Assembly: GCA_038046385.1 (NCBI GenBank)
Contig: JBBSWH010000011.1
Coordinates: 1-64,000, forward strand
Source of the DNA: Nanobdellota archaeon
Lineage (GTDB): Archaea > Nanobdellota > Nanobdellia > Woesearchaeales > GW2011-AR4
DNA length: 64,000 nucleotides
Direction: 5' to 3'
The position numbers and the translations under genes were made by a program. Every line of letters begins with the position of its first letter. The first letter of the stretch is position 1. The notes under the pieces were generated by a model. It ran no database searches. It was not told the DNA's origin and worked only from the letters and a program-made list of their open reading frames with translations. This document shows positions 43,848-47,169 of this stretch, in pieces.

Positions 43848-44480
43848 TCACCTGTTTTTCTCAAACCTAAAGCAGCTTACATCAATTCTGTGGATTTGTC
43901 GACGGTGAAACTTCATTGTAGCCTTCAAAGGGAGCTTAAAATCCCAAATATGGGTTATTTTGGCGTTTTTCTTGGCCGAAAACCCTTCCAGAAAGGCTTT
44001 GCTCTCACTTTTGTGCAAGGAGTATACAATAGGCGCTATTTCCAGCGCTTTTTCAAGGAAAACAGCATCGTTATGCTTTATCTTTGTCCCAAAAGGCGGG
44101 TTCTGTATAACCACCTCTGCCTTTAGATTTACCTCGGTTATATCCTGGCAGATGAATTTCCCCATCTTCTCTACCGAACTCTCACTTCTCACCTTTGAAA
44201 AGCTCATTTTTGCAGTTTCCAGAGCCTTTTTGTCCATATCTACAAAGTATACCTTACCTGCGCCCAATAGTGTGGCTCCAATGCCCAAGATACCCGTCCC
44301 ACATCCAAGATCAGCTATCACTTTTCCTTCTATATCTCCTAACATATAGGCGTTCCACAGCATATGACCGGCTACTTCGCTGTCTGTAGCATACTGCTCA
44401 TGCCTCACATCTGGCTCAGCAAACCCCTTAAGGCGTGATAAAGCCACTGCAAGCTGCGATTTTGATCCTATCTGTCTCAT
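43848..44480 (-). CDS. METTL5-family RNA methyltransferase
   Basis: EQYATDS, DLGCGTGILG, QNPPFG, D..FL..A, VYSLHK, FH. Confidence 0.9.
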   Translation of the reverse strand: MRQIGSKSQLAVALSRLKGFAEPDVRHEQYATDSEVAGHMLWNAYMLGDIEGKVIADLGCGTGILGIGATLLGAGKVYFVDMDKKALETAKMSFSKVRSESSVEKMGKFICQDITEVNLKAEVVIQNPPFGTKIKHNDAVFLEKALEIAPIVYSLHKSESKAFLEGFSAKKNAKITHIWDFKLPLKATMKFHRRQIHRIDVSCFRFEKNR

Positions 44481-44810
44481 TTTAACTCTCACTTATTACG
44501 AGTAAACTACTATTATATCATTATCTTCTATAGTGAAAATAAATATATTCATACTCACTATATACTTCCTTATTGATTGTTTATCCCTCTTTTTGCCCCC
44601 ACTTCTTATGAGCAAAACTCAGTTATTTAGGTCTGCTTATTATACTTGCTTTTTGGAAGGCAAAAATCACAAATAAACTGCCAATTTTAGACCCTTAAAT
44701 CTCTTATATTTCAGCCAAAATTTTTGCATATTTCTTTGATTTTTACACAAAAAAATTAAACTAATTTTCCTGATTTTTTATTAAAATCACTTCAACTATA
44801 AATATTTTTC

Positions 44811-44962
44811 CCAGTCCCAGCGTAGTCTTATCATATTCCCAAGACTATCCCAATATAGTCCTAAAATATATATCTTGACGACGAAAAACATTCCCATATT
44901 AGTCCTATTATAATCCCAATAAAATCCCACGGAATCAAAAAATTTAAATAGATTGGGACTAA
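44811..44962 (+). repeat. Phased array of degenerate 11-bp direct repeats (consensus about ATAGTCCCAAT): 5 + 4 copies plus one inverted copy
   Basis: Units start at 44811, 44822, 44833, 44844, 44855, then (after 22 bp, same register) 44888, 44899, 44910, 44921; inverted ATTGGGACTAA at 44952. Confidence 0.8.
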
Positions 44963-44973
44963 ATTGGTAAAAT

Positions 44974-45630
44974 ATGTTCTGGAAAAAAGACAATTCAACA
45001 GAAAGAAAGCTTGCGCAGATGAATGAAGTTTTGAAAAAATCTTTTTCAAATGTTAAAAATGACACCCAGAATATATTCCAGTGGCTTAACTATTTTCACA
45101 GAAAAAGCATGGAGCAGGAGCAGCTCATAAAGCAGCTAAAAACAGAGCTTTCCTACATGCCAAAGACAAGGGAAGACATAAGGCGCATTGTAGACGATTA
45201 TTACTCTTTTGAGAGCATAATGGCCAAGATACGTGATTTAAGCTACAAAGTAGATCAGCTTGCTATGGTCAGAAGTGAGCAAAGGCCAATAGTTCAGCAG
45301 CATTCAGATGAATGGAAAAGTTACGTTAATGAACTCCAAAAAAGGCTTGAAAATCTTGAACATAGGAAATCGTCAATAAGGGAAAAAATAGTCAAAAAAA
45401 TCACTCGCAATTCAAAAGAGTATGTTAAAAGCATGATGCTTTCTTACATAAGAAAATATGAAAGAATTTCCGCATTGCAGCTTAAGGATATAGTGGTTGA
45501 CGAGCAGAATTTCTGCTCCAAAAGCTCGTTTTACAGGCTCCTCGAAGAGCTCGAAGAGCTGGAAGAAATAGGGGTTATCAAGGAAGGCAAGGAGAAGCAT
45601 TACGTATCAAAAGCCATTAAAAGAGTATAA
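44974..45630 (+). CDS. Coiled-coil protein with C-terminal winged helix
   Basis: Heptad-rich N-terminal part; C-terminal ISALQLKDIVV..CSKSSFYRLLEELE..IGVIKEGKEKHY. Confidence 0.75.
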   Translation: MFWKKDNSTERKLAQMNEVLKKSFSNVKNDTQNIFQWLNYFHRKSMEQEQLIKQLKTELSYMPKTREDIRRIVDDYYSFESIMAKIRDLSYKVDQLAMVRSEQRPIVQQHSDEWKSYVNELQKRLENLEHRKSSIREKIVKKITRNSKEYVKSMMLSYIRKYERISALQLKDIVVDEQNFCSKSSFYRLLEELEELEEIGVIKEGKEKHYVSKAIKRV

Positions 45631-45672
45631 AAAGAAACCTTTTTAAACCCACTAAGTTTTGCAAAGCTTGGG

Positions 45673-46215
45673 GTGAGTAAGATTATTGGAAAAATCTTTC
45701 TTAGAAACATCAGTGCAAAACTTAGTAGGACAACAAGCAACCTGAAGTCGGAATTTTCCGATATAAGGGGCGAATTTGATGAGCATTTGCAGGCTATAAA
45801 CGAGAACACCAACGAAATATCTGCAAACTATGAGCATATATGTGAAATTGAGGAAAAGCTTGACAGATTAAGCGCAAGAGTCGAACAGATTCAGATGTAT
45901 TTTGAATCAGGAGACGCTCCAAGAAACTCTAATTTTGAGGTAAAACAGCTTAATCGAAGAGAGCAGGAAGTGTTTCTTGTGATGTACACTCTAGAAGAAG
46001 AGCACGGCAATGTTACCTATGAAAACATAGCAAGCAGGCTTGGTATTTCAATAGAACTTGCGGGCTCTTATGTGACTGCTTTGATAGAGAAAGGCGTTCC
46101 AATAATAAAGCGCTACATCAACTCAAAGCCGTATTTGAAGCTTGATCCGGATTTCAAAACACTGCAGACAAAAGAAAATATTTTGCAGGTAAGTTTGGAA
46201 GAATTTGGATTCTAA
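45673..46215 (+). CDS. Coiled-coil protein with C-terminal winged helix
   Basis: EHLQAINENTNEI coiled coil; LNRREQEVFL...VTYENIASRLGIS....SYVTALIEKGVPI. Confidence 0.75.
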   Translation: MSKIIGKIFLRNISAKLSRTTSNLKSEFSDIRGEFDEHLQAINENTNEISANYEHICEIEEKLDRLSARVEQIQMYFESGDAPRNSNFEVKQLNRREQEVFLVMYTLEEEHGNVTYENIASRLGISIELAGSYVTALIEKGVPIIKRYINSKPYLKLDPDFKTLQTKENILQVSLEEFGF

Positions 46216-46276: not shown

Positions 46277-47092
46277 CTACAACCTATCTAAAGGACTTTT
46301 TACCTTCTTTAGCTGTTCTGTTGAAACCTTTGTGTAAATCTGCGTTGTTGAAAGATCAGCATGGCCAAGAAGCTCCTGGATGATTCTAATATCTGTTCCA
46401 TTTTCAAGAAGATGGGTTGCAAAGCTGCTCCTCAGCGCATGGCAGAAAACGCGCTTCTTTATGCCTGCTTTTTTTGCAGTTTCCTTCACGATTTTCTGCG
46501 CTTGCCTTGCGGTTATTGGTCTGTTGTTGACGGAAAAAATATAGCTGCTTTGATCCTTTTTCATTGGCATGTACACCTTTAAATGCCCTATCAAGCTGTC
46601 AGAAAGGATGATATGGCGTTCTTTATTGCCCTTGCCGTGCCTGACGCGGCCCATCTTCTCATCGAGGTCTAAATCGTCAATTTTGAGGCTTACACACTCG
46701 CTTACACGCAATCCTGAAGAATAAAGGAACTCTATGAGCAGCCTGTGCTTTGGATTTGTAGCAGCATCAATCAGCTTTCTCATCTCGTCTCTTGTGAGTA
46801 CTGTTGGCAGTTTTTTCTCTGCTTTTGGGCTTTTAACTGCGTTAAATGCCTTATTTTGAAAGATCTCGTTAAGATAGAACTTTACTGAACTTAAGGCGAG
46901 ATTTGCGCTCCTGGGGCTGTATTTTCGGTCAGAAAGCAGGTAAGCGAGGTATTTTTTGGCATCAAATTCGTTCACAGAAGAAGGTTCTTTACCTATGAAA
47001 TTAATGAAATTTTTGTTGTGATAAAGGTAAGAGCTAACTGTTTTGTTGCTGAATCCCCTTATTTTGAGCTCTGTTTCAAGCCTGTCAAGCAT
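46277..47092 (-). CDS. xerA: XerA-like tyrosine recombinase
   Basis: N-terminal SAM-like domain; KKLPTVLT, SGLRVSE (R), GKGNKER (K), HALR, LLGH, TTQIY. Confidence 0.9.
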   Translation of the reverse strand: MLDRLETELKIRGFSNKTVSSYLYHNKNFINFIGKEPSSVNEFDAKKYLAYLLSDRKYSPRSANLALSSVKFYLNEIFQNKAFNAVKSPKAEKKLPTVLTRDEMRKLIDAATNPKHRLLIEFLYSSGLRVSECVSLKIDDLDLDEKMGRVRHGKGNKERHIILSDSLIGHLKVYMPMKKDQSSYIFSVNNRPITARQAQKIVKETAKKAGIKKRVFCHALRSSFATHLLENGTDIRIIQELLGHADLSTTQIYTKVSTEQLKKVKSPLDRL

Positions 47093-47133: not shown

Positions 47134-47169
47134 TAAAACTTCGCTTAATGTGTATTATACGAAGTTTTA
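47134..47169. other. dif/lox-like tyrosine-recombinase target site
   Basis: 11-6-11 core ACTTCGCTTAA-TGTGTA-TTATACGAAGT (47138-47165); arms extend to TAAAACTTCG/CGAAGTTTTA; about 40 bp upstream of xerA. Confidence 0.8.

Follow-up and report, generated by a model that had tools for sequence, protein, structure and literature searches.

A 121-bp array of phased 11-bp direct repeats and the two small genes that follow it, P1 and P2, are the subject of this report; they lie at positions 44811-46215 of a 64,000-nt stretch of DNA from a Nanobdellota archaeon, and we call that whole stretch (bases 1-64000 of contig C11) the window. The assembly (G000) has 1.28 Mb in 19 contigs with 38% GC, and the nearest relatives of its proteins are labelled Candidatus Woesearchaeota or Nanoarchaeota. 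The array is firmly a real, unique and conserved cis element that is genetically tied to P1 and P2, and structural models firmly place both proteins among coiled-coil plus winged-helix DNA binders, with no named family. The extreme C-terminus of P2 resembles the motif by which partners hold the sliding clamp PCNA; it docks into the corresponding pocket in a predicted complex, and P2 likely binds the clamp. We propose that the array is a dedicated binding platform for P1 and P2, present once per chromosome and coupled to replication through P2 and PCNA, a reading that, taken whole, we consider about as likely to be right as wrong. An earlier description of the stretch (here the first-pass annotation) had put forward the array and both genes, beside xerA, as a candidate chromosome segregation or terminus-organizing system; the P2 tail, a central dyad motif in the array and a dif-like site are additions to it.

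The repeat array and its uniqueness

The array (44811-44931) comprises nine units in groups of five and four to either side of a 22-bp spacer, and a single 11-bp register runs through all of it, spacer included. Exact TCCYA cores are found in eight of the nine units and the remaining one, with its core at 44826, reads TCTTA. Direct reading of the sequence confirmed the nine degenerate 11-mers, the division round 22 bp and the common register described in the first-pass annotation. Compiled over 81 upstream regions (568 units), the profile of the unit reads (A/T)(T/C)A(T/G)TCCCA(a)(a/t). Tandem Repeats Finder made no report on the array because only the 5-nt core is kept between units, and a first, stricter repeat pattern proved too narrow (5 matches vs. 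6.8 expected).

Three counts exclude chance as the origin of the array. TCCYA is rare in this genome, with 3249 sites in 2.57 million strand positions. No spot elsewhere in the 1.28-Mb genome has at least four TCCYA cores per 11 phased slots (periods 8-14, both strands), the array itself having eight; the scan for the consensus that the first-pass annotation had proposed thus ended without a second phased run. The same annotation had conceded that its reading would fall if such periodicity were common in this genome's intergenic DNA, which is not the case: a motif-free scan (any 5-mer, periods 8-14, at least 5 of 11 slots) returned five clusters genome-wide, among which the array is the sole one with a period of 11. 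Outside the array, TCCYA pairs spaced by 11 bp number 3 against an expected 4.1, which argues against a wider regulon.

Conservation of the array with P1 and P2

Relatives of the locus were compared in 80 loci, each with 3-kb flanks, from named Woesearchaeota/Nanoarchaeota assemblies whose P1 homologues are 36-71% identical to that of the window; counts are over these loci, over 81 upstream regions or 81 P1 sequences, or, for P2, over 79 homologues. The comparison of upstream regions suggested in the first-pass annotation was positive, as phased 11-bp repeats recur upstream of P1: at least six TCCYA cores are present within 300 bp of the gene in 73 of 80 loci, and at least five stand in one 11-bp register in 58. 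Adjacent cores in the relatives are exactly 11 bp apart in 391 of 652 cases and separated by multiples of 11 bp in 474, and core density is 33.2 per kb upstream of P1 vs. 3.0 per kb in the remainder of the loci. P2 comes after P1 in 79 of 80 loci, the one exception being cut by a contig end.

Co-occurrence was scored in 301 genomes spread evenly across the order (including 8 flagged as unpublished), with P1 called at E ≤ 1e-20 (85 genomes) and the array as a run of three phased cores (71 genomes). Both were present in 65 genomes, P1 only in 20, the array pattern only in 6 and neither in 210; these genomes are kin and not independent samples, so the Fisher value overstates the association between array and P1. 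A reversed control pattern gave only single hits, in about eight genomes, and the array adjoins the P1 gene wherever the coordinates of the two could be cross-checked. In G103, a genome of another family represented by a contig of 1,000,545 bp that is essentially a complete chromosome, the sole TCCYA cluster is directly upstream of P1. The first-pass annotation was right, then, to treat the array and the proteins as one system, whereas the candidate centromere or terminus role that it attached to them is not supported, as discussed below. Matches in a phylum-level sample were labelled "same order" only, the share of other orders in that sample not being visible.

In a public metagenome run, two assembled contigs end and begin within the array (at 44817 and 44847), which suggests that the repeats break short-read assembly. 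Arrays may consequently be under-represented in draft genomes, and this could explain some of the P1-positive genomes that do not show the pattern. Sixteen sequencing runs containing the stretch are listed, from six studies, chiefly of groundwater metagenomes.

In the relatives, the gap between the two blocks holds a near-palindrome of the type TTATCG-N-CGATAA. Of 81 upstream regions, 59 contain a match to a loose version of this central motif, CGNC[GTA], and in 29 the match lies 92-95 bp before the start codon. In more distant clades (L032-L048 and L059-L079), the DNA before P1 has a further CG motif, about 180 bp upstream, with additional TCCCA blocks around it, and some of these clades also show cores at 6-bp spacing and inverted cores there; judging from these layouts, the element evolves by the addition of modules. 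Two genomes of one family (G081, C41:125383-125898, and G178, C7:628426-628950) have phased cores past the 3' end of a P1-like match and on the opposite strand, an arrangement unlike that in any of the 80 fetched loci.

Predicted structure and relatives of P1 and P2

In the AlphaFold model of P1 (predicted local distance difference test score, pLDDT, 76.8), helices at residues 7-60, 66-76, 79-102 and 111-145 precede the winged helix, residues 148-212. The top Foldseek matches of the model are generic winged helices (Hop2, Fur, ArsR, BlaI), none at E ≤ 0.001. A near-length search returned 801 P1 homologues, and identity to most aligned relatives is 63-72%. The most conserved stretch of P1 is its recognition helix, CSKSSFYRLLE, with a conservation of 95% or more across 81 sequences that are as little as 36% identical overall. 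P2 was modelled (pLDDT 65.7) as a single helix at residues 3-78 and a three-helix helix-turn-helix (HTH) at 95-139, and in the structure atlas's own model of P2 residues 86-174 align to winged-helix proteins; the best Foldseek matches are the DNA-binding domains of LexA, MarR and DtxR, at E of about 0.01. P2 is 64-94% identical to its aligned relatives, and its recognition helix is more variable than that of P1. The first-pass annotation had described a coiled coil and a C-terminal winged helix in each protein, no Walker A motif and convergence on xerA, and this was borne out by the models, by a motif scan in which neither protein has a Walker A motif, and by gene order.

Neither protein matched Pfam, NCBIfam, PHROGs or PADLOC past the cut-off, the last-named pair of databases giving weak coiled-coil or HTH matches. 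Profiles of P1 and P2 returned only coiled-coil noise from PDB sequences, atlas searches found only unnamed Nanobdellota/Woesearchaeota clusters and winged-helix look-alikes, and no relatives were found among the viral contigs of IMG/VR. No paralogy between P1 and P2 was detectable (BLASTP E 0.29; hhalign probability 2.85%), and no longer, fused forms of P1 were found, which is weak evidence. The TrmB family gave no Pfam match to P1 or P2 at E up to 1. An identity as ScpA/ScpB was rejected, as there is no family match and ScpA is encoded elsewhere in the genome, and so was a CdvA-like identity, whose E of 0.058 fails the cut-off.

The public record of P2 from this genome has 142 residues (P0123, 79% coverage), while relatives have about 183, and starting at the GTG at 45673 restores the full length. 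Judged by these lengths, the deposited gene call is probably too short.

A PCNA-binding-like tail on P2

The consensus of the PCNA-interacting protein (PIP) box, which is placed at an accessible terminus, is Q-x-x-[LIVM]-x-x-aromatic. P2 of the window has the C-terminus NILQVSLEEFGF, and its tail differs in letters from clade to clade (...QLSLxEFGF in that of the window, ...AQKELVNF, ...QTTIRNLF and ...NTLLSYWL in others), what is common being [QN]-x-x-hydrophobic-x-x-aromatic at the very end of the protein. A strict form of the motif, Q..[LIVMF]..[FWY] within the last 14 residues, is present in 48 of 79 P2 homologues vs. 22 of 1519 background open reading frames (ORFs), and a relaxed form in 58 of 79 vs. 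69 of 1519. The 21 homologues missing the relaxed form are mostly truncated after Q-x-x-L.

Within this genome the strict C-terminal motif was found in 11 of 1524 ORFs of at least 100 residues. The other ten include a Hel308-type helicase, Fen1, the large subunit of DNA polymerase D (PolD DP2, next to orc1 on contig C6) and NreA; C-terminal PIP motifs are described for PolD DP2 and NreA in the available text of PMC7776575. Coordinates of motif-bearing ORFs in G000 are C6:138671-142033, C6:75469-76503, C4:52146-53705, C7:2505-3743, C14:23264-25207, C17:22172-23578 and C1:138020-138622. Three of the ORFs (646, 467 and 199 residues as scanned) have no Pfam family and, going by the motif, could be new partners of PCNA.

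When P2 residues 138-180 were modelled with the genome's own PCNA, using a 24-row alignment, the complex scored 0.78 (runs 0.76, 0.78, and 0.78), and the best of three controls scored 0.00; the mark applied to such predictions is reached by 58 of 80 solved complexes and by 2 of 110 mismatched pairs. Contacts are shared between the runs to 80% or more, and the pLDDT of the partner is 46-48. In the model, P2 residues 169-180 meet PCNA residues 39, 42-46, 123-126, 223-224, and 240-247, which is the canonical pocket formed by the interdomain connector loop and the C-terminal tail, and the tightest contacts of P2 are made by Q172, L175, and F178. We consider that P2 likely binds PCNA.

Promoter and intergenic DNA

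The intergenic region between a minus-strand methyltransferase gene (43848-44492) and plus-strand P1 is 481 bp long and holds the array and the promoter in its final 165 bp. We take TTTAAATA to be the promoter element from the usual geometry of archaeal promoters; a TATA-like octamer is present in 76 of 80 loci, and in 55 of those 76 it is 29-31 bp from the start codon. Its distance from the ATG in the window implies an mRNA that is leaderless or nearly so. The array ends about a dozen bases before the conserved TATA-like box and its transcription factor B recognition element (BRE), and for this reason control of the operon promoter by the array complex itself is plausible. An inverted copy of the core (TGGGA) is indeed present between the TATA-like box and the start codon, where the first-pass annotation had placed it. 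In the 42-bp gap between P1 and P2 (45631-45672) there is a TTTTTAAA stretch about 26-33 bp before the GTG of P2, and from this spacing P2 may have a leaderless promoter of its own rather than being co-transcribed.

Conserved sequence is limited to the array with the promoter and to the 50 bp nearest the methyltransferase gene, the roughly 250 bp between them being filler of variable length. The methyltransferase-proximal block is, from its position, probably the promoter of that divergent gene. The filler is AT-rich, with a GC of 0.279 over 44550-44800 that falls in the lowest 2.4% of the 250-bp intervals of the genome, and across 70 loci the intergenic region is 307-1066 bp long (median 493 bp). 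An RNA gene in this long region was considered and is unsupported: Rfam gave no match over the whole window at gathering cut-offs or over 44350-45050 at E up to 1, ARAGORN likewise gave none, and the folding z-scores of the filler (-0.93 and -1.47) are no better than those of shuffles.

The xerA neighborhood and a dif-like site

Past P2 lies a convergent xerA-type gene, the best of three tyrosine recombinases in the genome (Table 1); on the other side, synteny extends to an RpoL-like gene in 74 of 80 loci and to the methyltransferase in 70. The synteny with xerA that the first-pass annotation proposed to check held in part, with a recombinase beside P2 in 51 of 80 loci and none in the other 29, some of which are cut by contig ends. 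A dif-like site is located 46 bp upstream of the xerA start, at a distance of 2.2 kb from the array; the genome has no second copy of it when up to 7 mismatches are allowed. Sites within 9 mismatches of it were found in 32 of 80 loci vs. 0 of 60 background chunks of 6.6 kb, and of the 38 loci that include sequence upstream of xerA, 18 have a strict TAA-N6-TTA site whose arms are complementary at 8 or more of 11 positions. In relatives the site is usually 11-89 bp upstream of the xerA start.

Imperfect 11-bp inverted repeats, a 6-bp spacer and TAA-N6-TTA are the hallmarks of archaeal dif in the available text of PMC2958812 and PMC11840125, the latter giving the TAA-N6-TTA core as the most conserved feature. 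In the same portions of these papers, a putative dif near or upstream of xerA is reported for Sulfolobales (PMC2958812) and for Haloferax and Halobacterium (PMC11840125). The sites of three loci (L064, L065, and L072) share a 16-nt center with the dif of Thermococcus kodakarensis, as given in the Methods of PMC11840125. The candidate at 47138-47165 looks like the chromosome-dimer resolution site of these archaea.

The xerA orthologue of G103 is distant, at 103 kb. A 217-residue tyrosine recombinase with only the catalytic domain follows P2 there on the same strand (C1, L153 16270-16923, about 856.3-856.9 kb), and recombinase matches of about 30% identity follow P2 on the same strand in L039, L040, L045, L055, and L060. 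That a recombinase comes after P2 even where no xerA orthologue is adjacent implies that the link between P1/P2 and a recombinase survives rearrangement. SMC and ScpA are both encoded in the genome of the window.

Table 1. Features of the array, the P1-P2 operon and their surroundings (positions in the window)
Feature	Position	Strand	Description
Conserved block at methyltransferase gene start	44493..44545	-	columns at least 80% identical in a MAFFT alignment (window and those of L001-L031 with a methyltransferase match)
AT-rich filler, sequence not conserved	44546..44810	.	few conserved columns
Repeat block 1	44811..44865	+	five units (44811, 44822, 44833, 44844, 44855); cores at 44815, 44826 (TCTTA), 44837, 44848, 44859
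Spacer, 22 bp	44866..44887	.	register kept; central CG-containing motif, CGACG from 44879
Repeat block 2	44888..44931	+	four units (44888, 44899, 44910, 44921); cores at 44892, 44903, 44914, 44925
TATA-like box TTTAAATA	44943..44950	+	preceded by an A-rich BRE-like stretch; 31 bp before the ATG at 44974
Inverted core TGGGA	44954..44958	-	between TATA box and start codon
P1, 218 aa	44974..45630	+	helical N-terminal half (conserved), variable linker, coiled coil, winged helix 148-212 (nt 45415-45609)
P2, 180 aa, GTG start	45673..46215	+	helix 3-78, winged-helix-type HTH at about 91-165, PIP-like tail 169-180 (nt 46177-46212)
xerA-type tyrosine recombinase	46277..47092	-	convergent with P2; Phage_integrase E 2.7e-45, Phage_int_SAM_4 E 2.8e-14
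dif-like site ACTTCGCTTAATGTGTATTATACGAAGT	47138..47165	.	11-bp inverted arms (9/11 complementary), 6-bp spacer, TAA-N6-TTA core

Position relative to the origin

Each genome examined has one strong orc1/cdc6, never beside the array. In the five genomes with orc1 and the array on one contig, the distance between the two and the angle it makes on the chromosome (sizes rounded) are 184 kb and 66 degrees in G352 (~1.0 Mb), 199 kb and 65 degrees in G376 (~1.1 Mb), which is of the same family and so not independent, 224 kb and 67 degrees in the unpublished G001 (~1.2 Mb), 354 kb and 91 degrees in G178 (~1.4 Mb), and 359 kb and 129 degrees in G103 (~1.0 Mb). Raw cumulative GC skew on C11 and C6 was set aside, as it follows gene orientation. 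In the orientation-corrected skew of third codon positions, the largest step is at or near orc1, reaching -0.34 in G103 (95% confidence interval, CI, -0.40 to -0.29) and -0.145 on contig C6 of G000 (CI -0.21 to -0.06). The step at the array has the opposite sign (+0.078 in G103 and +0.068 in G000); it lies inside the control range of G103 (-0.07 to +0.17), and other places in G000 have steps to match.

The array is thus neither the main origin nor a fixed terminus, given that it has no distinctive skew step and stands 65-129 degrees from orc1, although the skew leaves room for a minor origin or a pause site there. These results also bear on several points of the first-pass annotation. Its suggestion that GC skew be mapped at the locus led to a step at orc1 and to nothing distinctive at the array. 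The terminus-organizing or matS-like role does not agree with a single cluster of sites whose position varies from 65 to 129 degrees and which no skew switch accompanies. The centromere or segregation role is not supported, given the lack of an NTPase motor, none of the actin, tubulin or ParA type being found in or beside the operon in 80 loci (judged by the gene set of the window and by Pfam on P1 and P2), and the fold of P1, a winged helix and not a ribbon-helix-helix. Its alternative, an iteron-type origin, gained an unexpected parallel in the clamp-binding-like tail of P2, but no support from the skew. What stands of its interpretation is the core, a proposed nucleoprotein complex formed on phased repeats by proteins from the adjoining operon.

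Cumulative GC skew along G103 C1 (1.0 Mb; loci L111-L160) falls monotonically, with genes divided 48:52 between the strands. Its third-codon skew is a sawtooth, with a sharp step at orc1 (about 495 kb) and a gradual return round the circle, unlike the square wave expected for bidirectional replication with a fixed terminus. In L081, no obvious repeats are seen in the 540 bp that precede orc1.

Proposed mechanism

There are two DNA motifs and two proteins, and the invariance of the P1 recognition helix matches that of TCCCA, while the helix of P2 and the central motif are both less conserved. From this pattern of conservation, P1 likely coats the cores and P2 likely sits on the dyad. The complex likely controls the adjacent leaderless promoter. 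Since the direct repeats are one helical turn apart, the protomers on them would be arranged head to tail on one face of the DNA. We infer a cooperative assembly in which P1 would read the TCCCA core through its invariant recognition helix and load with one protomer per 11 bp, as five and then four neighbors held together by their coiled coils, and in which P2, as a dimer, would take the near-palindromic CG motif in the 22-bp gap. The complex would end about a dozen bases before the BRE/TATA of the operon and would in this way set its own expression. In the cell, the PIP box at the extreme C-terminus of P2 would hold PCNA, so that the complex would be tied to the passing replisome or to PCNA that stays on the DNA after it, and in the clade of the window it would do so 2.2 kb from xerA and the dif-like site. 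There is a precedent in iteron-binding winged-helix initiators, which in the available text of PMC4980987 bind phased repeats cooperatively and, in the case of TrfA, carry a clamp-binding motif. A bolder version of the proposal is that P1, P2 and the array are the first archaeal sequence-specific chromosomal site to engage the replisome directly via PCNA, either as an Orc-independent iteron-type origin or as a polar station for fork pausing or replication sensing; this is conceivable, though we lean clearly against it.

A number of observations weigh against the proposed platform. P1 was found in only 85 of the 301 genomes sampled, which means that members of the order can do without the system. 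The strict three-core pattern is absent from 20 of the P1-positive genomes, and in G021, a complete genome, a remote P1 homologue stands beside a divergent neighbor with no array upstream. A recombinase adjoins P2 in only 51 of 80 loci, and family f43 and G103 lack a xerA orthologue next to the operon. Among the 79 P2 homologues, 21 (relaxed form) to 31 (strict form) have no PIP-like pattern or a truncated one, and the fold of the partner in the P2-PCNA model is uncertain (pLDDT under 50). The docking score may owe something to structures that the model has memorized, given how many PIP-PCNA complexes have been solved, and it shows likeness, not binding. Co-conservation is the sole pointer to the pairing of P1 with TCCCA and of P2 with the dyad. 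As for autoregulation of the operon, which the first-pass annotation had advanced, the abutment of the array on the conserved BRE/TATA keeps it plausible, but only 20 of 80 loci have the inverted core, where a repressor would most obviously bind, within 45 bp of the start. Finally, of four sequencing runs mapped on the stretch, the one RNA run covers just 175 nt, inside the methyltransferase gene.

Alternative explanations

It is feasible that the array serves the recombinase, as an accessory or organizing site for Xer/dif dimer resolution at which a stiff P1/P2 filament near dif would act as a roadblock or pairing device, in the way that DNA flanking dif stalls SMC together with TrmBL2 in Thermococcus, or would time XerA to replication via PCNA. 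The dif-like site so close to xerA and kept next to it in relatives, the catalytic-domain recombinase after P2 in G103 with the weaker matches in five other loci, and the presence of SMC and ScpA are all consistent with such a role. The available text of PMC11840125 adds that SMC domain boundaries at the DNA surrounding dif in Thermococcus need the filament-forming TrmBL2 and not XerA/dif, and that of PMC2958812 raises an unknown partner coupling XerA to the cell cycle. However, 29 of 80 loci have no recombinase match beside the operon (some being cut by contig ends), three f43 genomes and others have no xerA orthologue by this query, the angle of 65-129 degrees from orc1 is not that of a fixed terminus, 2.2 kb is long for classical accessory sequences, and P1 and P2 match no TrmB family; we regard this role as unlikely. 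An iteron-type replicator, in which P1 and P2 as Rep-like initiators would bind the repeats, melt the AT-rich flank and recruit PCNA via the P2 tail, would make the locus an Orc-independent secondary origin of plasmid-like ancestry beside a recombinase. Its layout is recognizable here in the phased direct repeats, the flank in the lowest 2.4% of GC, the adjacent initiator gene, the inverted half-site in the promoter of some loci and the tyrosine recombinase adjoining the operon in 51 of 80. Yet the units are spaced by 11 bp, when roughly 22 bp is usual for iterons, P1 and P2 have one winged helix each vs. two in Rep and match no Rep family in Pfam, NCBIfam or PHROGs, the sequence of the flank is not conserved and its length differs greatly between loci, no relatives were found in IMG/VR viral contigs, and the skew, which steps sharply at orc1, has at the array a small step in the opposite direction that does not exceed those of controls. 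Even allowing for the properties of iteron initiators in the available text of PMC4980987 (winged-helix proteins, cooperative only with helically phased sites, with a clamp motif in TrfA that is needed for replisome assembly), we think such a replicator distinctly unlikely.

An ordinary pair of autoregulated transcription factors would use the repeats for cooperative self-control and have its true targets in weak single sites elsewhere, the PIP-like tail being incidental. A good many regulators have sites in front of their own genes, the array adjoins the promoter, and both proteins resemble winged-helix regulators of the Fur, ArsR, MarR, LexA, and DtxR kind. What makes this quite improbable to us is that two genomes contain no further phased sites, and a regulator with its sole strong site at its own promoter has no output; in addition, identities of 63-72% for P1 and 64-94% for P2 are comparable to the 61-76% of PCNA (from a different genome set), and the C-terminal pattern is kept across clades as its letters change and is shared in the genome almost only with replication and repair proteins. 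We find highly improbable a centromere like parC/ParR or tubC/TubR, or a polar fork barrier like Tus/Ter or RTP/Ter, with the gene beside its own site. The two phased 11-bp blocks upstream of the binder's operon do resemble R1 parC, and a winged helix on iterons resembles TubR; direct repeats would lend the complex polarity, tus and rtp each adjoin a terminator site that autoregulates them, and P2 contacts a part of the replisome in the model. Against this, no NTPase of the actin, tubulin or ParA kind was found within the operon or next to it in the 80 loci, the P1 fold is not the ribbon-helix-helix of ParR, the array is 65-129 degrees from orc1 with no skew switch marking a fixed terminus, and we know of no role for PCNA binding in partition.

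Relation to known systems

In R1 parC/ParR and in tubC/TubR of pBtoxis, direct repeats of about one turn stand in two blocks upstream of the operon of their binder, which, as would be expected of the binder here, coats them and autoregulates. The present locus differs in having no ParM or TubZ gene, a P1 that is not ribbon-helix-helix, a promoter that follows the array instead of lying between the blocks, and the PCNA-binding-like tail of P2. MatP/matS, with many palindromic sites dispersed through a terminus macrodomain, is unlike a single cluster of direct repeats. Winged helices of the PhoB/OmpR type bind 11-bp direct repeats head to tail, as proposed here for one-turn repeats, although homology and a receiver domain are both lacking. 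In phage T4 late transcription, the clamp-binding C-terminal tails of gp33 and gp55 couple the promoter to the DNA-loaded sliding clamp; the likeness is to a P2 tail that would link promoter to clamp, whereas there is no homology and no sigma-like factor at this locus. The archaeal PCNA clients Fen1, PolD DP2, NreA, and Hel308 share with P2 an extreme C-terminal Q-x-x-L-x-x-aromatic motif, but P2 is no enzyme and is a putative sequence-specific binder tied to one chromosomal site.

The closest mechanistic model in print appears to us to be the iteron plasmid initiator and, by position and for the clade of the window only, the TrmBL2 boundary flanking dif in Thermococcus. TrmB proteins have a domain order that is reversed relative to P1 and P2. 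The available text of PMC4980987 describes for iteron plasmids (TrfA of RK2) the cooperative winged-helix binding of phased direct repeats. In these plasmids, as here, the gene of the binder lies beside its sites. TrfA also has a clamp-binding motif, to which the P2 tail, modelled in the equivalent pocket of PCNA, would be an archaeal analogue and not the same motif. Unlike the iteron initiators, P1 and P2 have one winged helix with a long coiled coil, no Rep family and 11-bp spacing, and the array is chromosomal, unique, vertically conserved and without a skew sign of origin activity. TrmBL2 of T. kodakarensis is, in the available part of PMC11840125, an HTH protein that forms filaments on DNA beside dif and gives the chromosome its shape there, much as the array of the window is 2.2 kb from a dif-like site. 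It is an abundant nucleoid protein with many sites, in contrast to the single array of P1/P2, which have no TrmB match, and the adjacency of the array to dif is not universal. In the literature searched, including the available portion of a 2026 preprint on complete Nanobdellota genomes, we found neither the array nor either protein family described, and no account of an archaeal protein that binds DNA sequence-specifically and has a PIP box.

Implications

How archaea mark places on the chromosome for replication-linked events is largely unknown. Replication termination in Sulfolobus is said to occur by random fork collision (PMC3020120). For XerA, the available text of PMC2958812 gives no known partner, and the sole dif-linked organizer described, in that of PMC11840125, is a general nucleoid protein. 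The site reported here probably links one spot on the chromosome to DNA replication. The locus supplies a 121-bp DNA site, two small soluble proteins without a named family and a predicted 12-residue handle for PCNA, and as all three parts are conserved across many uncultivated Woesearchaeales the hypothesis is testable with recombinant parts alone. Also gained are a candidate dif site for these genomes and a simple DNA pattern by which the system can be found in new assemblies. On the bolder version of the proposal, which we lean against, a station that keeps PCNA at a single landmark on each chromosome would make a downstream event wait for the passage of the fork, and that event would be Xer/dif dimer resolution in the clade of the window, or else a burst of the system's own expression.

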